Below are positions 21,290 through 60,505 of a DNA stretch of 64,000 nucleotides, in pieces (within the stretch, counting starts at the first letter, position 1; every line of letters starts with the position of its first letter). This DNA comes from Escherichia phage KIT01: sequence record AP019521.1; one strand, given 5' to 3'. Position numbers and translations under genes: made by a program. Under the pieces are notes generated by a model. That model did no database searches and was not told the DNA's origin. It saw nothing but the letters and a program-made list of their open reading frames with translations.

Positions 21290-22183
21290 TTAAAGGACCA
21301 CGTCCTCATAACTTGGCATTTCGTGCTCAGAATGGATATGGGCACCGAAATAAATGAATTCAGCTAGACCAGGATGGAATACTAAACCAGGATTCTCATG
21401 ATAAATGATATGAGGTCTTGATTTCAGAATCTGATAATATTCAACCTTACTCGGTTTGAATTTAATAATCTCTACATCAGGACGATAGTCTTCACGCTTA
21501 AATGAATCATTCGGATCGGTGATATAAAGGCGAGAACCTCCAGCCGCAGCTTGGTCTACAACTCTTTCGAATTGATAGCATTTATCAGAGATACGGAATG
21601 GATGGAAAATACCATCAATTTTAATAGGCGCTAGACCTTCAGAGTAACGCTCAATTACTGCCGGATTAATTACCTTTTGGTCTACAAAAATCTTATCAGA
21701 GGACGCACCTCGTGACACCAGGACGTCTTTCTGGCATTGATTCAAGACTGTAGTATAAATCGAACGTTCAACTGAAGACACGTCGATATCAATGAACTCA
21801 TCGATGTAATAACGAGGAACTTCAGGGTCCATTGTAATGTTAAAGTTGAATTGTACAGTATGAGCACCATCATAACCTGTGATATCGGTTACCAATCCTG
21901 AGCAGTCATAGTATTCGATTAACGAATCAACAACGAACTCATTTTCAGACCAAAAATGTTTACGAGTTTCATAAGCATTTTCTTTATACCAAAGCGGTAC
22001 AAAATTCAGTTCAGGAAACAATTCAATACATTCTTTGATATCGCTCGAATTTCTAGGATAAGCCAGATAATCACCTGGGCAAGCACGGTTTAAATGGAGT
22101 TGAAAATTACCGTCCTTAAGGACGGCATATTCACCTGTTTCGTAACTACGCATACTGAAAATAGGAACGATAAACAAACTCAT
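21290..22183 (-). CDS. unrecognised protein at the beta-glucosyltransferase locus (candidate hmC-modifying transferase)
   Basis: 297 aa; lies between uvsX and gene 42 where T4 has beta-gt; no similarity to T4 beta-gt detected by eye. Confidence 0.55.
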   Translation of the reverse strand: MSLFIVPIFSMRSYETGEYAVLKDGNFQLHLNRACPGDYLAYPRNSSDIKECIELFPELNFVPLWYKENAYETRKHFWSENEFVVDSLIEYYDCSGLVTDITGYDGAHTVQFNFNITMDPEVPRYYIDEFIDIDVSSVERSIYTTVLNQCQKDVLVSRGASSDKIFVDQKVINPAVIERYSEGLAPIKIDGIFHPFRISDKCYQFERVVDQAAAGGSRLYITDPNDSFKREDYRPDVEIIKFKPSKVEYYQILKSRPHIIYHENPGLVFHPGLAEFIYFGAHIHSEHEMPSYEDVVL

Positions 22184-22878
22184 TTCAGGAATCCTCGAAC
22201 GTAGTCAAAATCACGTTCAAATACATGTGCACTAACCATAGTATGGGAATACGTACCCAGACCAACACCACACTGTTCAGCAATAAAGGCCATCAGTTTA
22301 CCCTGCAGATAGAAATCCAGCTGCATAACGATAGCACAGTTCTGTGAACGCATATGGGTATGTGCATAAAGACGTCCATCACGAATATAATATGTTACCG
22401 AATCGGTGCACGGATATTCTAAGGATTCGTCAGAATCAAGGAGGGCTTGGTCTTGTTCTTGGAGAATTTGGAACACAACTCGTCTCGAGTTAGGCTTTTC
22501 TTTAAGCTCTTTAAGTAAGGCTGGGAGTTGGGCCACAATTCGAGGTCCATAGAAAGTGTTGAAGTTTGCAGGCAATACGTCACTTTTCGGCTTATCAATG
22601 AACTTAGCAACATTAGGGTATTCCTTAAATGCTTCGGCGGCATCAGTACCGCCGGAAATCATAAACTTCCAGAAAGATTCGGCATAATCATAGTTGATAC
22701 GATTAATACGAGGGTCGGTGAATTTATAGGTGCTTGCATCCAGTACTTCTACCGAAGCAGAACCAATTTCATAACAACGGCCGATACGAGAATCAACTGC
22801 AAACTGTGGAGCTTCCAGGATTTCTTCGTTCATTTGCTTAAACGCGTTTTCAAAACTAACAGCGGTAATGTGTTTCAT
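22180..22878 (-). CDS. 42: dCMP hydroxymethylase (thymidylate synthase fold)
   Basis: 232 aa; PCTDSVTYYIRDGRL...MRSQN...QLDFY aligns with T4 gp42 CTNTVQYLIRD...MRSND...RNDY; synteny. Confidence 0.8.
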   Translation of the reverse strand: MKHITAVSFENAFKQMNEEILEAPQFAVDSRIGRCYEIGSASVEVLDASTYKFTDPRINRINYDYAESFWKFMISGGTDAAEAFKEYPNVAKFIDKPKSDVLPANFNTFYGPRIVAQLPALLKELKEKPNSRRVVFQILQEQDQALLDSDESLEYPCTDSVTYYIRDGRLYAHTHMRSQNCAIVMQLDFYLQGKLMAFIAEQCGVGLGTYSHTMVSAHVFERDFDYVRGFLK

Positions 22879-23411
22879 TTATTCACCTTATTTTCAATAT
22901 ATTCATTCAGACGTTTTAATTCTACCATATCGACGTTAAGCAAGTTATTATGCCCGTCATGGTTTAAAACTTTAAAAACATTTTTAAAACAGTCTTCATA
23001 TTTTTGGATAGTTAAGTTGAATTCATCTTTAGTCAGTTTAATGAGGTCATCTTCAAAGTCTTTATCCAACGGATTACGGGTTAAAATAATCTCAATGATA
23101 TTGAATTCTTTTTTGAAATCAATCCAATCTGCTAGTTCTACATAAGGGTCCATTTCACCACGAAGGAATCCCGAGTAAACAATATTACTAGGATACCCAC
23201 GGTCTAAGATGTAGACAAAATTAGGGTCTAAAAACTTATACAACGTCTCGACTAAAGCCTTGTCATTATCAGTCCCTAATGAAATGCATTTGCCATTAAT
23301 CTTTTTAGGGAAATCAATAAGACGATATTTCTTATCAGATAAAAGTGATTCAATTAAAGTAGACTTCCCGGAATTATCCGGGCCGTCGATAACAATGATT
23401 TTTGGTTTCAC
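22875..23411 (-). CDS. P-loop nucleoside/nucleotide kinase-like protein
   Basis: 178 aa; Walker A IIVIDGPDNSGKSTL at N-terminus; small kinase fold typical of dNK/TMK-like enzymes. Confidence 0.6.
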   Translation of the reverse strand: MKPKIIVIDGPDNSGKSTLIESLLSDKKYRLIDFPKKINGKCISLGTDNDKALVETLYKFLDPNFVYILDRGYPSNIVYSGFLRGEMDPYVELADWIDFKKEFNIIEIILTRNPLDKDFEDDLIKLTKDEFNLTIQKYEDCFKNVFKVLNHDGHNNLLNVDMVELKRLNEYIENKVNK

Positions 23412-23782
23412 GGATGATATGCCTTATAGGTTTCAAGAGTTCCTTCACGAACCATTTCTTTAAAGTGGTCAGGACGGATTGCTCGGTCATCGATGATAAA
23501 AGTATAACTCGGCTTATGTGTAAGCAGATTATGATATTTCAATCCGATCTTTTCAAGGTTCTTAACCAATGCAGGAACTACTTCAACCAAGATTCGACCA
23601 GGGCCGCATGAAGTCATGCCACGGGCAGTGAACAAGGTAATCTCATGACCTTCGTCATAAAGCTTATTAATCATGGACACCATTTCGGTGTCCGGTTTAA
23701 AGTTTTCGTAATCACGGTCATCTTGCCAGTGAGTAATGGTATTATCGATATCAAAACACAGATGCATTAAATTTTCTTCCAT
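23408..23782 (-). CDS. HAD-superfamily phosphatase-like protein
   Basis: 124 aa; motif I FDIDNTI (DxDxT), later TAR and IIDD motifs; alternative start at 23767. Confidence 0.55.
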   Translation of the reverse strand: MEENLMHLCFDIDNTITHWQDDRDYENFKPDTEMVSMINKLYDEGHEITLFTARGMTSCGPGRILVEVVPALVKNLEKIGLKYHNLLTHKPSYTFIIDDRAIRPDHFKEMVREGTLETYKAYHP

Positions 23783-25440
23783 TGTTTGTGGAGTTCAGTA
23801 GAACCTGTAGGTTTATATTTTACACCAGTTTCCTGGTCAAGCAAAACCCACTTATCAGGGCAACGAGTGATAATTTGAGCCGTAATAGGGTCACGAACTT
23901 CATCGACAAATTCACCTGTAATAAGCTTACGCTTACGAGGATGCCGCTTCAGCAGCACACTCAGTTGGTATAGACCGTTGTAATAAGCACCCAGAGCTTT
24001 CAGAGGATTATTCTTAAAGTAACCTGCCAGTGCCATCCAAATAACGGCAATCCAGAGCTTGTGCTTAAATGTACACATCGGAATATCATCTAAAGGCATA
24101 ACCTTTTCAATATCAACGAATACACGAGTTCCGTTACGAGTTAATCCACCCCATAGAGGGTCAGAGTTAAATTTGTCATAGCCATCGATAGAATAAAGCA
24201 CCTTAGCTTCGTCATAAATCGCAGGGCCTTTAGAACTATTACCAAAATAACCACGTGGGTCGATGATTTTAATATCACCTTCGTCCGACAGCATAATATT
24301 ACTGTAGTGCGGGTCACCATGAATAAGTTGGTATGGTTCTTTATGTTCAGACAGAATTTCTAGTGCATGACGGAGAAGTTTTTCAGGGTCGCCTACCTTG
24401 AAGTCGTTAACATGGGTAATGCCCTGTGGAGCAAAGCCTTCAATCAATCCAGCAATAGAAGCATTACGAATAAGGACCTTGTCCAATACTTCTTTCTTAA
24501 CATCAGAATACCATTGCTCATCGGATGGGTTATCGATAGTTCCGCCGAATGAACGCAATGCACTAATGACCTTATAAACCATGAGGACTTTGGTTTCTTT
24601 AGACATAAACCGGTAGGCATCTGCCATGGTACGACCAAAGATACGTTCCATTTTAATGAATTCGCCTGGAGCAAAGTCTACAATGCTAGGAACGAATTCA
24701 GAATCAATAGAATTATACCAATTGATTTCTTTAGATTGGATTTCTTTACCTAATTCGTTGGTAGGTACTTTAATAGCCAGATTCTCAGTGAATTCTAATT
24801 TATTAAATTCACGGTTAATTTCAGAATCTTCATGGGCCTTAGCCAGTTTCAATTTGTCACCGACATCAACCACAAAGTCCAGCTTACGTTCAGTCAAATG
24901 GACCATCGAATCCAGGTTGTCTGCAAGGTCTTCGCCATAATTAGAACGGTCGAAACCTGTCCAATTAGCCACCTGATACAAACCAACCACACCACCGCCA
25001 GTACCAATTTCACGCAAGTACGGTTCTTCAAATGTAAAACGACAGTCGGTCCCATAGGTATAACAGTAGTCGTTATCCCACTCAACTTTATGACCTTCAG
25101 GAATAATATCACACCAGTTAAACAAGACATTATGCCCGATGATATCTTCGGCAATGCAATCGATAGCATGAGCTGAACCATTGGCCACATCTACGTTACG
25201 GATAGTGAATTTAGGCTTATCACTGGTAATCATGTTAATGGATTTAATATAGCCTTTAACGAGGTCGTTAAATTTGCTGTGAATAACCAGAATAATTTCA
25301 TCTGATTGGTTACTATACAAATCATACAAATGTTTTAATACGGTATGTTGTTTGTAGTTAACCAATACCTTCGGGATTTCGTTAGTAATTGGATACAACC
25401 GTGAGCCAAGACCCGCGCCTAAAATAACAACCTTTTTCAT
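23767..25440 (-). CDS. bifunctional sugar-1-phosphate nucleotidyltransferase / APH-choline-kinase-like sugar kinase
   Basis: start set at MKKVV after GAGGAA SD; N-terminus VVILGAGLGSRLYPIT..IPKVLV = RmlA/GlmU signature; C-terminal HGDPHYSNIML...IIDPRGYFG = Brenner kinase motif. Confidence 0.7.
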   Translation of the reverse strand: MKKVVILGAGLGSRLYPITNEIPKVLVNYKQHTVLKHLYDLYSNQSDEIILVIHSKFNDLVKGYIKSINMITSDKPKFTIRNVDVANGSAHAIDCIAEDIIGHNVLFNWCDIIPEGHKVEWDNDYCYTYGTDCRFTFEEPYLREIGTGGGVVGLYQVANWTGFDRSNYGEDLADNLDSMVHLTERKLDFVVDVGDKLKLAKAHEDSEINREFNKLEFTENLAIKVPTNELGKEIQSKEINWYNSIDSEFVPSIVDFAPGEFIKMERIFGRTMADAYRFMSKETKVLMVYKVISALRSFGGTIDNPSDEQWYSDVKKEVLDKVLIRNASIAGLIEGFAPQGITHVNDFKVGDPEKLLRHALEILSEHKEPYQLIHGDPHYSNIMLSDEGDIKIIDPRGYFGNSSKGPAIYDEAKVLYSIDGYDKFNSDPLWGGLTRNGTRVFVDIEKVMPLDDIPMCTFKHKLWIAVIWMALAGYFKNNPLKALGAYYNGLYQLSVLLKRHPRKRKLITGEFVDEVRDPITAQIITRCPDKWVLLDQETGVKYKPTGSTELHKQWKKI

Positions 25441-25500
25441 TATCTGTTCCTCAAGTGAATGTAGGTACATTATACACTATTTTTAATAAATTGGTATTGC

Positions 25501-56028: not shown

Positions 56029-56487
56029 TTAAAGATAGATTACTTTCGTGCTGGTTTTACCTTCTAAACGTTTAGAGTTAACAAATGCCATACGACATTT
56101 AAGGGAATATCCTTTATCAGGATGTTTACGGTCTACGGTCATACCCAACCATAAGGTTTTATCGGTAATTTCGAGACGCAACGGGCGATACACTTTACCA
56201 GGGACAATTTCGGATTCAACATCAGGCAGAGGTTCCTGGATTAAGAATTCATGAATTTCTTTAACATGGATATGGAGTTGCTTGAATAAAGCAAAAACGT
56301 ATTTTTCGTCGATTTCACGTTGGATAGCACGGTCCAACAAGTGATTAGAGTACTTAATAAAGAAGGCTGGGACTCCGCTCTTAATGGCGGCTTTTTTGAT
56401 GGACGCATTCAGTTCACGGAATTCGGTTTCGAACTGACGACGTAATTTGTTGCGGCGGATGAATACTTCTGAATTAATTTCTGACAT
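56029..56487 (-). CDS. regB: endoribonuclease RegB
   Basis: 152 aa; EVFIRRNKLRR.FE.EFR..N, HLLDRAIQREIDE.YVF, RLEITD..LWLG matches T4 RegB. Confidence 0.9.
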   Translation of the reverse strand: MSEINSEVFIRRNKLRRQFETEFRELNASIKKAAIKSGVPAFFIKYSNHLLDRAIQREIDEKYVFALFKQLHIHVKEIHEFLIQEPLPDVESEIVPGKVYRPLRLEITDKTLWLGMTVDRKHPDKGYSLKCRMAFVNSKRLEGKTSTKVIYL

Positions 56488-56493
56488 TTTGTA

Positions 56494-56544
56494 ATCTCCT
56501 GTAGATGATAGGTCTATAGTACCACGTCTACAGGAGATGTAAAC
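56494..56544 (-). promoter_or_regulatory. early promoter/stem-loop cassette upstream of regB
   Basis: gtaaac 56539-56544; 12-bp perfect inverted repeat 56494-56505 / 56527-56538 containing the regB SD. Confidence 0.6.
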
Positions 56545-56550
56545 TGCTTT

Positions 56551-56832
56551 TTAGTATTTCTCTTCAGGTCGGAAAACACCGCGACAAGCCCACATAGAAG
56601 CTTCTTTCAAACGGTCTTTGGCCTTAGACAGACAATCAGATGCAAAGAGTACCGGGTCCAACTCTTCTTCTGGGGTGGAAGAGCTGTTGGCTAGTCGATT
56701 ATATTCTTCGATAATCTCGTCTTCAAGCGCTTTAAAGATTAAACCCAATCGAACTTCAGCGTCTTTGATAGCATTCACTTTACTGATTTTATCGTCGGTA
56801 TGTGGTTTATAACCCTTGATATCTTCAATCAT
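56551..56832 (-). CDS. hypothetical protein
   Basis: 93-aa ORF. Confidence 0.4.
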   Translation of the reverse strand: MIEDIKGYKPHTDDKISKVNAIKDAEVRLGLIFKALEDEIIEEYNRLANSSSTPEEELDPVLFASDCLSKAKDRLKEASMWACRGVFRPEEKY

Positions 56833-57047: not shown

Positions 57048-57384
57048 ATTTTTTCCAGTCAGAAATCATATGAATCTCTTGGTCATAAGTCAAGAGACTG
57101 CGAGTAATAATACCCTTACAAGGCCCTGAGATGAACTCGAGGGTGAAGTAAGGAACCTGTTTCATTAATCGGATGCTTGGGGCATGGCATCTAAAACGAG
57201 AGCCCTTAAAGGGTCCTGTCATGAACACGTATTCTAGTGGATAGAAATAAGCATATTCGAAATTTTTAGTAAGGTCCTCTCTTCGAACCTTACGTGAGAA
57301 ATAACAGAACTCAAAAAGTTCTTCATCAGTCATCATTGCATTCCTATCACAAAGAACAGAGGCAAAGGCTTGTCGCCTTGGCAC
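57040..57384 (-). CDS. hypothetical protein
   Basis: 114-aa ORF. Confidence 0.4.
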   Translation of the reverse strand: MPRRQAFASVLCDRNAMMTDEELFEFCYFSRKVRREDLTKNFEYAYFYPLEYVFMTGPFKGSRFRCHAPSIRLMKQVPYFTLEFISGPCKGIITRSLLTYDQEIHMISDWKKYV

Positions 57385-57860
57385 ATAAATTTATTAATCA
57401 TTATCTGGTAAGCTTCGTAGAACTTATCCATCGCTGGAAGGCGCATCGGCTCTTCGATAATAATCAATAATCTAGTAACAGATAGTCCACGATACTTATG
57501 GAAATTGTCTTCATCAAGGAAACTGCGCACAGTATCATAGACAACAAAACCGGGACCTTCGACTTGGAGATGTGGGTGTGCCTTAGAAACCTGTTTTATT
57601 ATATTACAAATTTCTCGCGAGCGATGCGAACTACTTGACATAACAATCACATCATTACCTTTGGAAACCCAATCGGCTGCGAACTGAGCAAGGGCACTTG
57701 TTTTACCTGTTTGTCGACCACCATCAAGACGAAGAGTACCAAACTCTTGCATTCTTGAAGCAGGTTCATACCAGGTATATTGGTCTGAGTCTAAACGTTC
57801 AATGGCGCGTTCAGCGAAGGCGTGCATTAAGGTTAGATAAATAGGGGTTAAAAATTTCAT
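57333..57860 (-). CDS. P-loop NTPase-like protein
   Basis: 175 aa; GGRQTGKTSA Walker A-like, IIIEEP Walker B-like. Confidence 0.45.
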   Translation of the reverse strand: MKFLTPIYLTLMHAFAERAIERLDSDQYTWYEPASRMQEFGTLRLDGGRQTGKTSALAQFAADWVSKGNDVIVMSSSSHRSREICNIIKQVSKAHPHLQVEGPGFVVYDTVRSFLDEDNFHKYRGLSVTRLLIIIEEPMRLPAMDKFYEAYQIMINKFMCQGDKPLPLFFVIGMQ

Positions 57861-58021
57861 AGGTGTCTCTTAGTTGGTGGGGCCGTTCCTTGGCACATAA
57901 TTCATCCATGTATCCGTATGTAAACCCTTTACCGCACTTGGGCTCGACCTTATTACAGGTAGGGAAAGGTCCATCACTCAGAGGACGCGACGTTCATGAG
58001 GAGAGGGCCGGCTTGCCTTTA

Positions 58022-58321
58022 TTAGAAAGAACCAGAACCTTTAATTGTGTTCTGACGACCTTTATTTTCCAATTCGGAGTGGTCGATTTCATATGCTTGT
58101 GCTACGCCAAAGGCCTTTTTAACTTTAGCTAAAGAACCTTTAGATGTAACAATATTAAAAGTATTACCTTTGGTAAAATCAACCAAATCCACTTGTACAC
58201 CCTGCTTGCCGAGGCTTGCTACAATAGCATCAACATATTGTTGGTCTAAAGTACCTTGGACGCCAATTTGAAATGCTTTAGGAGCTTTGGCTTCTGTAAT
58301 AAATTCTTGATAAGTTTTCAT
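58022..58321 (-). CDS. internal protein (IP-like) with capsid targeting sequence
   Basis: N-terminus MKTYQEFITEA = T4 IP capsid-targeting leader MKTYQEFIAE. Confidence 0.7.
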   Translation of the reverse strand: MKTYQEFITEAKAPKAFQIGVQGTLDQQYVDAIVASLGKQGVQVDLVDFTKGNTFNIVTSKGSLAKVKKAFGVAQAYEIDHSELENKGRQNTIKGSGSF

Positions 58322-58329
58322 ATTAAGCC

Positions 58330-58689
58330 TTAAAGATGGTCTAGTGCTGGGTTATGAGGTTTTTCTGCTTTAGTAGTGTTTTTATGCCAATCTGATTTAG
58401 AAACACGGATGGCATCAGCGCCATAAGAACTCTTAAGGAGACCTTTTTTATTGTACACGCTTATTGAAGTAAGAGAATCACCATTCCATGTAGCATGAAT
58501 GAAGTTAGATTTAGATTTAAGTTCTTTAGCCAAGCTCTGGTTAGTGGCCATGGAAGCAAAGTCTTTACCTGTAACTTTAAAAACTTCAGATGGGTTCAGC
58601 CCTTCTTTAGCCTTAGCCAATTGTTCAGGAGACATAGCTTCGTTAATGCGCTGAGTAGATTCAGTAATAAATTGTTGGTAAGTTTTCAT
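58330..58689 (-). CDS. internal protein (IP-like) with capsid targeting sequence
   Basis: N-terminus MKTYQQFITES. Confidence 0.7.
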   Translation of the reverse strand: MKTYQQFITESTQRINEAMSPEQLAKAKEGLNPSEVFKVTGKDFASMATNQSLAKELKSKSNFIHATWNGDSLTSISVYNKKGLLKSSYGADAIRVSKSDWHKNTTKAEKPHNPALDHL

Positions 58690-58731
58690 ATTATTCCTTA
58701 AGTTGATAGAAGTATTCTATCACGGATTTAA

Positions 58732-59148
58732 TTAAGCGTAAATAGCCTTGCCGTAATGTTTGTACCAGGTAGGACGCTGTGCAATTTTTTCGTCCAAACG
58801 GGCTTGTGAAATGGCGATAGAAGCTTCGTGTGGAGTATAATCACCACGGAATTCCTGAGGAATATCACTAATGTCCTGGACCGTAGTATCCTTGATATTA
58901 AAACCACGTTTTAAACATTCCGCTATAAGCTCGATTTGACGTTTACGTAAAAACTCAAGCTTATCATAAAAGAAAGTAACATGGCCTGTACCAAGGATAA
59001 AAGTAGAGCTAATTTTAAAATCACGAACACGTTTACCATTAGCAACATGCTTACGAACTGCACCGAAAACACGTGGCAATTCACGATATTCAGCCATTAA
59101 GTGTTGGTCAGCCAATTCAGATACTAAGGTAAGGTTGATACGAGTCAT
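58732..59148 (-). CDS. denV: endonuclease V (pyrimidine dimer DNA glycosylase)
   Basis: start set at [34 protein letters not shown], essentially identical to T4 endo V; 138 aa. Confidence 0.92.
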
Positions 59149-59208
59149 TTTAGTGTTCTCCATGTTTGTATGAGAACACTATATCACAGCTATTGTAAAA
59201 GTAAACTG

Positions 59209-59511
59209 TTATTTAGCTTTAATTGCTTTAGCTGCTTCGGTAGCCGCTTGCTGAAGGTCATCCATAGACATACCGAACTTAGAAGCAAAGTTATCAATTT
59301 TCTTTTCGACAGAATTCAAAGGCTTGGCCTGTTTACCTTCATTAGCGCCCGGGAGAGCGAGAATACGCTCTTTGTCAATATAAAGGCTTACAAGTTTCTT
59401 ACGGTCTTTATCCGACAAATCATGAAATGAATGGGCCTTTTTATTTACAGCGGCTTCTAATTTACCTGCGGTTACGCGGGCTTCAGTGATAAATTCTTGA
59501 TAGGTTTTCAT
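59209..59511 (-). CDS. internal protein (IP-like) with capsid targeting sequence
   Basis: N-terminus MKTYQEFITEA. Confidence 0.7.
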   Translation of the reverse strand: MKTYQEFITEARVTAGKLEAAVNKKAHSFHDLSDKDRKKLVSLYIDKERILALPGANEGKQAKPLNSVEKKIDNFASKFGMSMDDLQQAATEAAKAIKAK

Positions 59512-59559
59512 ATGTTTCCTTAAAGGTAAATATTTTAATTGGTATGTTCAAGTAACTGT

Positions 59560-59592
59560 AGATATACTATCACAATTCTAGGAGATGTAAAC
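59560..59592 (-). promoter_or_regulatory. early promoter upstream of IP-like gene
   Basis: gtaaac 59587-59592, 17-nt spacer, TAGTAT. Confidence 0.5.
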
Positions 59593-59991
59593 TTATTTGT
59601 AGGTTTTCATCCAATTCTTGAACAAAGCCGCGACGTCTTTCTCTTTAACGTTCAGTTTAACGTCCAACATTTTACCACCCGCTGCTCTCGTTTGGCGAAT
59701 CTTAGCAGTACCGGTTTCACCATTCCACTCAACATAATACTGTCCAGTGTTCATTGCAATACCATCACCATAGTCTTCATTTTTAGAAGTGGTGAATGCC
59801 AGCTTCATAGTCTTAGATACACGAGCCTGCATGCCTGTCTGAAGGGCATTACGAACTCGAATAACCTGAGGAGTGGCCTGGGTCAGGTTCTCATTCAGTT
59901 CTTCAGTGAACTCTTCGGATTCGAACATCGCCAAAAGTTCTTTAGATGCAGGAATTACATTCTCTGCGATAAATTCATTATAAGTTTTCAT
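59593..59991 (-). CDS. internal protein (IP-like) with capsid targeting sequence
   Basis: N-terminus [11 protein letters not shown]. Confidence 0.7.
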
Positions 59992-60472
59992 ATGCTTTCC
60001 AAGTACCTGTTTTAAATGTAGAAATCACGCGCTTAGCACGATTAGGAGTTTGTTTATACCAACGGGATTGAGCCAGGTTAACTGCCGCATCGTTCCAACG
60101 TTTCTGTCGGAGCATACGTAAAGAGTTAGTGAACCCTGCTACACCTGCTTCACCCATTTGGAAGACCATGTTAATTAAAGCACAACGACGAACTTCGTCC
60201 AATACATCGTAAACAGGTTTCAATTTAGGATTACGCAGAATAGCTCTACGAGCATTTTCAACCGATCGGTTAAAGAGTTGTTCAGCTTCAGCCATAGTAA
60301 TACGTCCATTGCAAACTCGACCCATAAGCTTATCAAGTTCAGCCCGAGCAACATCTTTAGAAGGATTCTTAGTAATCAATTGGCCAATACCAATAGTCCA
60401 ATAACCTTCGGTGTCTTTATAAAGATTTAAATCAAGACCTTCGTCTTGACGTAACATATCAAAAATATCCAT
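59978..60472 (-). CDS. e: lysozyme (endolysin)
   Basis: 164 aa; collinear with T4 lysozyme ([23 protein letters not shown], catalytic E11/D20/T26 context, [25 protein letters not shown]). Confidence 0.95.
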
Positions 60473-60505
60473 AATACCTCCTGAGTATAGGAGGTATTTA
60501 TATCA
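60470..60505 (-). promoter_or_regulatory. late promoter TATAAATA plus SD-sequestering hairpin for lysozyme gene e
   Basis: minus strand reads TATAAATACCTCCTATACTCAGGAGGTATTATG: arms ACCTCC / GGAGGT pair across the SD. Confidence 0.6.

Follow-up and report, generated by a model that had tools for sequence, protein, structure and literature searches.

The internal proteins of bacteriophage T4 are the closest described counterparts of the genes analysed here. It is textbook knowledge that phages of this type inject diverse anti-restriction proteins sharing only a capsid-targeting sequence (CTS) (PMC3012670; PMC9026906), and the same idea of diverse internal proteins was put forward by Repoila in 1994, as cited in PMC12373910. 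The concept itself, its signal, the cleavage motif of the protease and the polymorphism of the cassettes were already known in the 1990s; that each of the three T4 internal proteins counters GmrSD has been known since 2025. Ip1, Ip2 and Ip3 are inhibitors with separate GmrSD targets, that of Ip2 being the enzyme of ECOR21 (PMC12373910), while IPIII is required on ECOR17 and works without its CTS when expressed in the host (PMC9391042). Residues 4 and 7 were defined as the targeting determinants by the mutagenesis of Mullaney and Black, and the processing motif of the gp21 prohead protease is L/I-x-E (PMC9026906). T4 Alt is likewise pre-loaded in the head, but this large enzyme undergoes processing at its two termini and carries a different targeting signal (PMC9026906).

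The window, a 64-kb stretch of the genome of Escherichia phage KIT01, belongs to a T4-like phage of the genus Dhakavirus (JS98 group) and is 95-96% identical to complete Dhakavirus genomes. An earlier note on this DNA had placed four ORFs with a CTS-type leader on either side of denV. Their coordinates were confirmed, and all of them lie on the minus strand, which the earlier note had not given:

59593..59991, minus strand: IP132, 132-aa precursor, JS98 orf114, phrog_15461, annotated as hypothetical only
59209..59511, minus strand: IP100, orthologue of T4 ipII (internal protein II), leader MKTYQEFITE, phrog_7857
58732..59148, minus strand: denV (endonuclease V), 138 aa, 97% identical to T4 DenV
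58330..58689, minus strand: IP119, 119-aa precursor, leader MKTYQQFITE, phrog_3966 (unknown function)
58022..58321, minus strand: IP99, 99 aa, Ip7 family, JS98 orf112, leader MKTYQEFITE, phrog_2667

The order is e - IP132 - IP100 - denV - IP119 - IP99 - vs.8, all on the minus strand, so that denV is flanked as had been claimed, with IP132 and IP100 on one side and IP119 and IP99 on the other. This array is syntenic with T4 e-ipIII-ipII-denV-vs.8 and occupies the same position between e and vs.8. The locus is the hyperplastic ipII/ipIII-denV region, a classical one in T4, and consists of an array of ip gene cassettes interleaved with denV, of an ordinary and previously described kind. All four genes lie in the e-denV-vs.8 hot-spot (the other ip hot-spot being beside 57B), on the same strand as their neighbours, and denV is a non-ip gene embedded within the cassettes. 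The start of denV is at 59148 (MTRINL...), the ATG at 59163 given by the ORF finder being the wrong start. The ATG of IP132 sits within the final codons of gene e, with an overlap of 14 nt.

All four ORFs open with MKTY(Q/N)(E/Q)FI(T/A)E. The pattern first proposed, MKTYQ(E/Q)FI(T/A)E, holds for three of them and fails for IP132, which has N instead of Q at the variable position 5. Y4, F7, I8 and E10 are kept in all four leaders, residues 8-10 being ITE in IP99, IP119 and IP100 and IAE in IP132, with Glu and not Asp at position 10. Across 77 leader-bearing ORFs from 32 related loci, M1, K2 and F7 are invariant, while Y4 is found in 74/77, I/L8 in 75/77 and E10 in 74/77. A six-frame scan of the 64 kb found MKTY at the start of an ORF at these four sites only, and sequence comparison indicates that the shared leader is far above chance expectation. 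Second candidate gp21 sites are present in IP119 (I-N-E, residues 15-17, INE17) and in IP132 (L-N-E, residues 32-34, LNE34), the latter invariant across its family. The leader, the I-x-E motif and the T4 ipII/ipIII position together bear out the claim that these are T4-type ip genes with a capsid-targeting leader. The window holds no ipI-like gene with a 19-residue propeptide. The head-gene region, gp21 included, lies outside the 64-kb window, and the gp21 prohead protease and scaffolding core are assumed from the T4 core genome (PMC9026906) to be encoded by the phage. The scan also revealed a further in-frame MKTYK near the C-terminus of IP132. It was considered as a fossil leader and rejected as probably a coincidence, given that homologues vary there (MKTHK, MKSYK, MKIYK, LK--K) and that it falls in a predicted C-terminal helix.

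The leaders also mark the places where the array differs from those of related phages:

59962..59991, minus strand: 30-nt leader of IP132 (CTS codons 1-10)
59482..59511, minus strand: leader of IP100/ipII (30 nt), marking the junction at which ipIII is deleted by comparison with C6 and MX01
58660..58689, minus strand: leader of IP119 (30 nt), where the IP119 insertion has its upstream junction when compared with C6
58334..58659, minus strand: body segment of IP119, without counterpart in C6, MX01 or JS98, bounded on both sides by leader copies
58292..58321, minus strand: leader of IP99 (30 nt), where the IP119 insertion has its downstream junction when compared with C6

DNA identity between cassettes of different families is 0.93, 0.83 and 0.72 over nucleotides 1-30 and about 0.3 (background) outside, and the breakpoints relative to C6, MX01 and JS98 are located in the leaders. 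IP119 is absent from these three closest relatives and present in WG01 and PSD9, while ipIII, present in C6, MX01, JS98 and WG01, is missing from the 64-kb window. Cassettes would be gained, lost and moved via homologous recombination in the shared leader of about 30 nt (plus the Shine-Dalgarno sequence), which would explain the presence of IP119 and the absence of ipIII relative to the nearest relatives. The 32 denV loci from IMG/VR hold 17 body families, whose order is shuffled and whose strand is invariably that of denV.

Beyond the leader the four bodies are mutually unrelated, as had been noticed earlier: leaderless BLASTP gave no pair below E=5. IP100 is 93-94% identical to T4 IPII over the full length (both 100 aa, E=1e-59; phrog_7857, E=7e-54), and shares with it the location, flanked by denV and the next ip gene, as well as the leader save A9T. 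The denV-ipII block is 90% nucleotide-identical to T4 and was recently exchanged with T4-like phages. IP99 matches phrog_2667 'internal head protein' (E=2e-42) and is 96% identical to VR7 ip7 and 49% identical to T2 Ip7 over 97 residues. It has the length class and leader of Ip7 of T2 and VR7 (T-even series of Repoila et al. 1994), whereas the T2 gene is found at the other ip locus, beside 57B, and not at denV. IP119 has relatives of 36% identity in Tequatroviruses. For IP132, genes of more than 80% identity occur in Dhakavirus and Marfavirus only; the Erwinia phage Cronus, which is a glucosylating phage, has a relative of 40% identity. Beyond the leader, neither IP119 nor IP132 is homologous to a characterised Ip, IP99, IP119 and IP132 lack homology to a characterised inhibitor, and nothing above threshold was obtained for any of the four proteins in Pfam, NCBIfam or PADLOC. 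T4 IPI* and IPIII (Ip1, Ip3), both of which inhibit particular GmrSD enzymes, follow the same scheme of targeting and processing, are likewise small and basic when mature and occupy the same genomic hot-spots, but have no body similarity to any of the four ORFs. The mature forms (9.5-13.7 kDa, pI 8.8-9.7, net +2 to +6, lysine-rich) are comparable to T4 IPI*, IPII and IPIII (8-20 kDa, pI 9.0-9.7).

In the AF2 model of IP99 (pLDDT 74), residues 1-10 are disordered and lie outside a compact alpha/beta fold. Foldseek against the PDB returned nothing more specific than domains of the ferredoxin-like, ACT or HMA kind (TM about 0.5, best E=7e-3), and the model is a generic ferredoxin-like domain without specific match that gives no functional hint. 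A search of PDB chains with IP99 gave a weak match to a flagellin-IN protein (E=0.011). IP132 was modelled with low confidence (pLDDT 55), too poorly for a fold search. Its match to the target-recognition domain of M.HhaI among PDB chains (E=0.011) was lost with the family profile and is attributed to chance or composition, and an equally weak match of that profile to flagellin D3 (E=0.02) was rejected, as was the match of IP119 to 9hnh (E=4e-4), a short helical repeat of an apparently designed protein. The IP132 profile retrieved only 7 hits from 1.84 billion representatives; the two that are not phage-like are SBBP-type beta-propeller repeats (E=3e-5), which is suggestive of a blade-like beta-meander in IP132.

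Taken as a whole, the locus is probably explained as an ip cassette array whose products are packaged, processed by gp21 and injected, and neutralise host defences. Each gene would encode a basic precursor of small size, docked in the scaffolding core of the assembling prohead by the capsid-targeting sequence in residues 1-10; gp21 would cut after Glu10 (I-x-E), and the mature 9.5-13.7 kDa proteins would remain in the head with the DNA and be injected together with it. In the host cell they would neutralise first-line defences, the most probable targets being particular GmrSD-family variants of Type IV (modification-dependent) enzymes, with one inhibitor per enzyme subtype. The DarA and DarB proteins of phage P1 are similarly loaded in the head, delivered with the DNA and act before phage gene expression, although they are large, unrelated to internal proteins and use other targeting signals. 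Packaging, cleavage and injection of the four proteins are inferred from the experiments on T4, and a literature search found no relevant virion proteomics or genetics for KIT01 or any Dhakavirus. By orthology to T4 Ip2, IP100 would have an anti-GmrSD role, while targets for IP99, IP119 and IP132 are speculative. The members of phrog_3966 and phrog_15461, 'hypothetical' in all records examined, become candidate injected internal proteins, and relabelling them would be a routine annotation gain for phage biology.

It could be argued that the conserved 5' end is a mere DNA or mRNA module, either a recombination site or a translation-initiation region, and that the proteins are not targeted to the capsid. 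The breakpoints do fall in the leader, and a Shine-Dalgarno context (TTAAGGA...ATG) is conserved ahead of it. Nonetheless, conservation ends exactly after codon 10 and synonymous third positions vary, with all four bases used in the Thr3 codon (ACT/ACC/ACA/ACG) and ATC/ATT/TTG/TTA/CTC used for residue 8. As identity is limited to codons 1-10 and third positions are free to vary, selection acts on the peptide. The conserved residues are those that mutagenesis tied to targeting and cleavage, and the same 10 residues suffice for loading GFP or a nuclease into T4 heads (PMC3012670, PMC9026906), making a nucleic-acid module a very improbable reading. Another, unlikely proposal is that internal proteins are mainly DNA-associated structural or charge-neutralising components that aid condensation, packaging speed or ejection, and that their diversity reflects neutral drift and shuffling and not specialisation against defences. 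This agrees with the lysine-rich, basic character of all four mature proteins, and with the roughly 1000 internal protein molecules embedded in T4 DNA, whose lysines contact phosphates (PMC3012670). Against it, the T4 ip genes are non-essential and Ip1-3 each have a specific GmrSD target (PMC12373910), and IPIII without CTS, supplied by the host, rescues infection (PMC9391042). Conservation of the bodies within families (97-99% in Dhakavirus; for IP132, 85% between that genus and Marfavirus) also argues for selection on specific folds. Structural and anti-defence roles are, in any case, mutually compatible.

If the proteins are injected as proposed, at least one of IP99, IP119 and IP132 could have a target that is not a GmrSD enzyme, such as another nuclease, an abortive-infection system or an Alt-like function in host take-over. 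Their bodies resemble neither Ip1-3 nor any of the families in Pfam, NCBIfam and PADLOC, and Alt, a packaged ADP-ribosyltransferase that is processed by gp21 and injected, demonstrates that roles other than anti-restriction are possible (PMC9026906). However, three of the three T4 internal proteins tested act on one enzyme family, proteins of 9-14 kDa without catalytic motifs are too small for an Alt-like enzyme, and the domain modelled for IP99 is generic and without specific match. A target outside the GmrSD family is considered possible, if somewhat unlikely.

The anti-restriction reading had been accompanied by the premise that this phage has a different DNA modification from T4, and this is supported. 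The window lacks agt, bgt and dam, and one of its proteins is 79% identical to RB69 gp48 (5-hydroxy-dCMP synthase), with the neighbours of that gene also present (cf. PMC13326640). The phage carries an RB69-type arabosyl-5-hydroxycytosine gene cluster, and its DNA most probably contains arabinosylated 5-hydroxycytosine, in contrast to the glucosyl-hmC of T4, the phage of the IP100 orthologue. The expectation that a different modification would bring different internal proteins fails in part, given that all families are shared with glucosylating phages and that IP100 is 94% identical to T4 IPII. A Dhakavirus whose DNA is most probably arabinosylated has retained T4 Ip2 and, as far as the window shows, lost Ip3. 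Since its block was recently exchanged with T4-like phages, the IPII orthologue could be a passenger and not an adapted function, considering the different DNA modification. Both Dhakavirus and Marfavirus carry the 5hodCMP-synthase cluster, and Marfa fits the idea that the IP132 family is exclusive to arabinosylating phages; Cronus contradicts it, having a T4-type gp42 and an alpha-glucosyltransferase together with its IP132 homologue. It was also considered whether IP132 and IP119 might be new injected inhibitors of host enzymes recognising arabinosylated 5-hydroxycytosine DNA, with defences of the Type IV or glycosylase type that single out the modification of RB69, Dhakavirus and Marfavirus as targets. 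This is doubtful, and is weakened by the homologues in Cronus (40%) and Tequatrovirus (36%). BrxU, a GmrSD-family enzyme, cleaves arabinosylated DNA too (PMC13390438), which fits the main reading of GmrSD-family enzymes as targets. The repertoire of internal proteins would be useful for predicting the host range of therapeutic T4-like phages against GmrSD/BrxU-type strains.

With respect to expression, the following sites were located:

60495..60502, minus strand: exact T4 late-promoter box TATAAATA, upstream of e, the only one near the locus
59564..59591, minus strand: T4-early-type promoter-like site before IP100, TTTACA-N16-TAGTAT with upstream TG, consensus match only
59178..59205, minus strand: promoter-like site before denV, TTTACT-N16-TATAGT with TG
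58714..58742, minus strand: promoter-like site before IP119, overlapping the denV stop, TTTACG-N17-TAGAAT with TG

Loading of the proteins into proheads requires late expression. Within the array there is no exact late promoter. Late transcription must either read through from the promoter of e or start at promoters that went unrecognised; the TATAAATA box is the likely source of late transcripts into IP132 and beyond.

Just downstream of the array, at 57910-58017, lies an RNA motif of about 108 nt that is conserved, covarying and pseudoknotted, and that occurs in about a thousand phage genome records with no match in Rfam. Its single-sequence fold is no better than that of shuffled sequences, the structure being revealed by comparative analysis only. 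The GC-rich gap that contains it was considered as host-derived DNA, and this was rejected given that no match was found in 5,426 E. coli genomes. In this stretch, the RNA motif is a more promising lead than the ip cassettes.

The four leader-bearing open reading frames (ORFs) reported in the earlier note are indeed present, with coordinates exactly as given there, as seen in both the ORF table and the raw sequence, and all lie on the minus strand. They are named here by the length of their products; the leader is the first 10 residues (30 nt) of each, a capsid-targeting sequence (CTS) of the T4 type.

58022-58321, minus strand: IP99, 99 aa, leader MKTYQEFITE
58330-58689, minus strand: IP119, 119 aa, leader MKTYQQFITE
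59209-59511, minus strand: IP100, 100 aa, leader MKTYQEFITE
59593-59991, minus strand: IP132, 132 aa, 10-residue leader

When all six frames of the window were scanned, MKTY opened an ORF at these four positions and nowhere else. BLASTP without the 10 leader residues detects no relationship among the four bodies, which are therefore mutually unrelated as had been claimed, and the gene order of the window confirms that leader-bearing ORFs flank denV. The true start of denV is at 59148 (138 aa, 97% identical to T4 DenV), and the ATG at 59163 proposed by the ORF finder was rejected. The array is bordered upstream by the lysozyme gene e (59978-60472) and downstream by vs.8 (57333-57860).

The window was assigned by Megablast to the genus Dhakavirus (JS98 group), with C6, NC-G, MX01 and WG01 as best matches (95-96% identity). 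For the 2.7-kb locus, however, coverage by any one record does not exceed 88%. IP100 is IPII (93-94% identity to T4 IPII; phrog_7857, 'internal virion protein'). IP99 is an Ip7-family protein (phrog_2667, 'internal head protein'), with 96% identity to the VR7 gene annotated ip7 and 49% to T2 Ip7; in T2, ip7 is found at the other ip locus, adjoining 57B. IP119 (phrog_3966) has identical (100%) counterparts in WG01 and PSD9 and more distant relatives (approximately 36%) in many Tequatroviruses, all annotated as hypothetical or wrongly. IP132 (phrog_15461) is found in just 49 phage records, in 17 clusters among 5.8 billion proteins and in 7 matches among 1.84 billion representatives; its homologues, invariably labeled 'hypothetical', occur in Dhakavirus, in Marfavirus and other Klebsiella phages (approximately 85%) and, more distantly (approximately 40%), in Serratia 4S and Erwinia Cronus/IT22. 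No ipIII homologue is found anywhere in the window.

Gene order at the denV array in KIT01 and other phages
KIT01 (window): e - IP132 - IP100 - denV - IP119 - IP99 - vs.8
T4: e - ipIII - ipII - denV - vs.8
C6 and MX01: e - IP132 - ipIII - ipII - denV - IP99 - vs.8
JS98: e - ipIII - IP132 - denV - IP99 - vs.8
WG01: e - IP132 - ipIII - denV - IP119 - (85-aa ORF) - vs.8

Collinearity between the window and C6 is broken exactly at the leaders, as seen by BLASTN. The IP119 body (58334-58659) has no counterpart in C6, and the two window leaders that border it both align to one and the same leader in C6, while C6 ipIII is absent from the window between the IP100 leader and the equivalent of the C6 ipIII leader. 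To extend this comparison, 79 loci were fetched from IMG/VR with DenV as the anchor, giving 80 stretches with the window included. In 32 of these, one to four leader-bearing ORFs are found beside denV, in every case on the denV strand; they comprise 17 body families (18 with T4 IPI as reference) in shuffled order, and the combination of the window is not repeated among these 32. Between cassettes of different families, the mean DNA identity is 0.93 for nt 1-10, 0.83 for nt 11-20 and 0.72 for nt 21-30, and drops to background (approximately 0.3) before -10 and after +32. Third codon positions vary freely where the change is synonymous (Thr3 is encoded by ACT in 39, ACC in 16, ACA in 13 and ACG in 5), which, together with the end of the identity at +32, indicates that the leader is conserved as a peptide ending at the cleavage site. 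On these sequence comparisons, the leader, a 30-nt block of identity, doubles as a recombination substrate. Elsewhere, 70 nt in the regB/vs.4 gap (56485-56553) share 86% identity with the intergenic (promoter) region between denV and ipII of T4. This resemblance suggests that an early-promoter module has been repeated; modules of this kind have been proposed as mediators of shuffling in T4-type genomes (PMC4122927).

At 59978-59991, the ATG of IP132 lies within the final codons of e (...GCA TAT GAA AAC TTA TAA), the two genes overlapping by 14 nt. The lysozyme ends in AYENL in the window and in AYKNL in T4; a K-to-E codon change would create the IP132 ATG, so that the end of e mimics nucleotides 1-14 of the leader. 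This leader-like end may have been the recombination anchor that put IP132 there.

The prohead protease gp21 cleaves after the Glu of L/I-x-E, and residues 1-10 of IPIII are enough for head targeting; positions 4 and 7 serve targeting and 8 and 10 processing, which is stopped by Asp10 (PMC9026906). Y4, F7, I8 and E10 are retained in all four window ORFs, and these positions are 96-100% conserved across 77 leaders. The predicted mature proteins (9.5-13.7 kDa, pI 8.8-9.7) resemble T4 IPI*, IPII and IPIII. In the AF2 model of IP99 (pLDDT 74), residues 1-10 are disordered and stand apart from a compact beta-alpha-beta-beta-alpha-beta domain. In T4, approximately 1000 IP molecules are lodged in the packaged DNA and then injected (PMC3012670). 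Each of T4 Ip1, Ip2 and Ip3 inhibits a single GmrSD-type Type IV enzyme and gives no protection against the enzymes of the other two (PMC12373910), and IPIII is required on ECOR17, host-made IPIII without the CTS still being functional (PMC9391042). From these four studies and the conservation of the leader, we infer that all four products would be packaged, cleaved and injected, and that IP100, by orthology, would target a GmrSD-type enzyme. For IP99, IP119 and IP132, the anti-restriction function claimed in the earlier note translates into a putative anti-defence role, which is plausible.

Second candidate gp21 sites are present in IP119 (I15-N-E17, 58639-58647) and IP132 (L32-N-E34, 59890-59898). 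L32, E34 and N35 are invariant across the IP132 family, distant homologues lack residues 11-28 and keep ELNEN, and residues 1-36 are disordered in the AF2 model, so mature IP132 may begin at N35. Residues ~64-99 (59695-59800) form a conserved beta-rich core, multiple stretches of which weakly resemble single SBBP-type beta-propeller blades (E=3e-5), and for which the low-confidence AF2 model predicts four strands. The C-terminus of IP132, ...NWMKTYK* (59593-59610, minus strand), was considered as a leader-like start and rejected, given that homologues vary there (MKTHK/MKSYK/MKIYK/LK--K); the resemblance is probably a coincidence.

It had been expected that a phage with a different DNA modification would carry different internal proteins. 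The premise is sound, given that homologues of agt, bgt and dam are absent from the window and that a cluster for cytosine hypermodification, of the RB69 type, separates uvsX from gene 43 (21290-25470, minus strand). At the gene-42 position, the window has a thymidylate-synthase homologue (232 aa, 22180-22878) with 79% identity to RB69 gp48, 85% to Marfa gp039 and 25% to T4 gp42, adjoining homologues of RB69 ORFs 045-047 and 051-053. The cluster also holds a kinase-like ORF, a HAD-like ORF, a 297-aa ORF matching RB69 ORF046 and ORF047, and a 567-aa fusion matching ORF052 and ORF053, in which an N-terminal sugar-nucleotidyltransferase and a C-terminal kinase-like motif can be read. RB69 gp48 was shown experimentally to be a 5-hydroxy-dCMP synthase, and Dhakaviruses are among the groups listed as sharing the 'arabinosylation cluster' (PMC13326640). 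Nonetheless, the expectation itself fails: IPII has been kept with hardly any change, IPIII persists as well in the nearest relatives (86% identity to T4), and all four ip families of the window have members in glucosylating phages. This retention is understandable because the GmrSD-family enzyme BrxU cuts arabinosylated DNA as well (PMC13390438), and because of exchange of the denV-ipII block. This block (58732-59593, including the promoter-like region upstream of ipII) has 89.7% nucleotide identity to T4 (DenV 97% and IPII 94% as proteins), versus far lower protein identities for the flanking genes (38% for Vs.8, 74% for e, 60% for NudE, 58% for RegB and 61% for gp43). The difference points to a lateral exchange between Tequatrovirus and Dhakavirus lineages not long ago.

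IP100, denV and IP119 each have a T4-early-like promoter in front of them, with an extended -10, by consensus match only. The sole exact late box, TATAAATA, lies upstream of e at 60502, so late synthesis of the ip genes may rely on read-through. In 60472-60502 (minus strand) this box is followed by a CCUCC...GGAGG hairpin, which would sequester the e Shine-Dalgarno in longer (early) transcripts, an arrangement that resembles that of T4 gene e.

Everything essential about this locus was already known, from the targeting signal and the protease motif to the existence of two ip hot-spots, the exchange of ip genes for unrelated ORFs with a common leader, and the arms-race reading (Repoila et al. 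1994, as cited in PMC12373910; PMC3012670; PMC9026906). Deposited sequences match the ip genes of the window at 96-100% identity. The additions made here are modest: two families become recognizable as candidate internal proteins, and this cassette combination with loss of ipIII is absent from the phage collection searched.

The gap that separates the stop of IP99 from the start of vs.8 contains a candidate structured RNA (57876-58017, core 57910-58017, minus strand). This 161-nt gap has 52% G+C versus 39% for the window and matches 985 phage records, mostly at 80-90% nucleotide identity, from T4-like phages of Escherichia, Klebsiella, Enterobacter, Yersinia, Salmonella and Erwinia, with no match in E. 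coli genomes. Frames differ among phages, and stops and 1-nt indels are present, indicating that the conserved DNA is not coding. An alignment of 20 copies, assessed against slid-partner controls and 500 shuffles, supports a fold of several helices and a pseudoknot: paired cells make up 91% (28-39% with partners slid), 13 pairs are changed on both sides (2-7 in slid controls) and the covariation score is 0.273 (versus <=0.069), values reached by 0 of 500 shuffles. Compensatory changes occur in the closing helix, at pair 15:51, at pairs 58:98 and 59:97 of the pseudoknot, and in a hairpin downstream whose loop is AAGGAA, and the G-U pairs are consistent with the gene-sense strand. Long single-stranded blocks are invariant (CCUCUCCUCAUGAAC, UCCUCUGAGUGA, CCUGUAAUAAGGUCGAGC and GCGGUAA) and include two CCUCU motifs. 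A search of the window and six other loci against Rfam 15 gave no family match. With the covariance model built here (R1), the motif is detected once in the window (57910-58017, 125 bits) and in every enterobacterial T4-like denV locus. Two loci hold a second copy in tandem, T4 (genome 64847-64935), T2 and WG01 hold a diverged variant, and rV5-like contigs of approximately 140 kb, which have no vs.8 downstream, hold a short one. The RNA might regulate vs.8 in cis, form a 3' element of the ip/denV transcripts, or act in trans or as a decoy.

The annotated start of T4 vs.8 falls within this motif, to which the 5' end annotated as coding (MRDSRQPVIRSSPSAV...) corresponds (T4 NC_000866 64793-64912; window 57861-57977, minus strand). 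The 5' stretch has stops or another frame in the window, C6, MX01, WG01, JS98 and T2, the last with an in-frame stop inside the motif region, and the first residue of Dhakavirus Vs.8 is equivalent to Met41 of the T4 protein (MRTFLTG / MKFLTP). The first 40 codons of T4 vs.8 are thus probably non-coding, and the T4 start mis-annotated.
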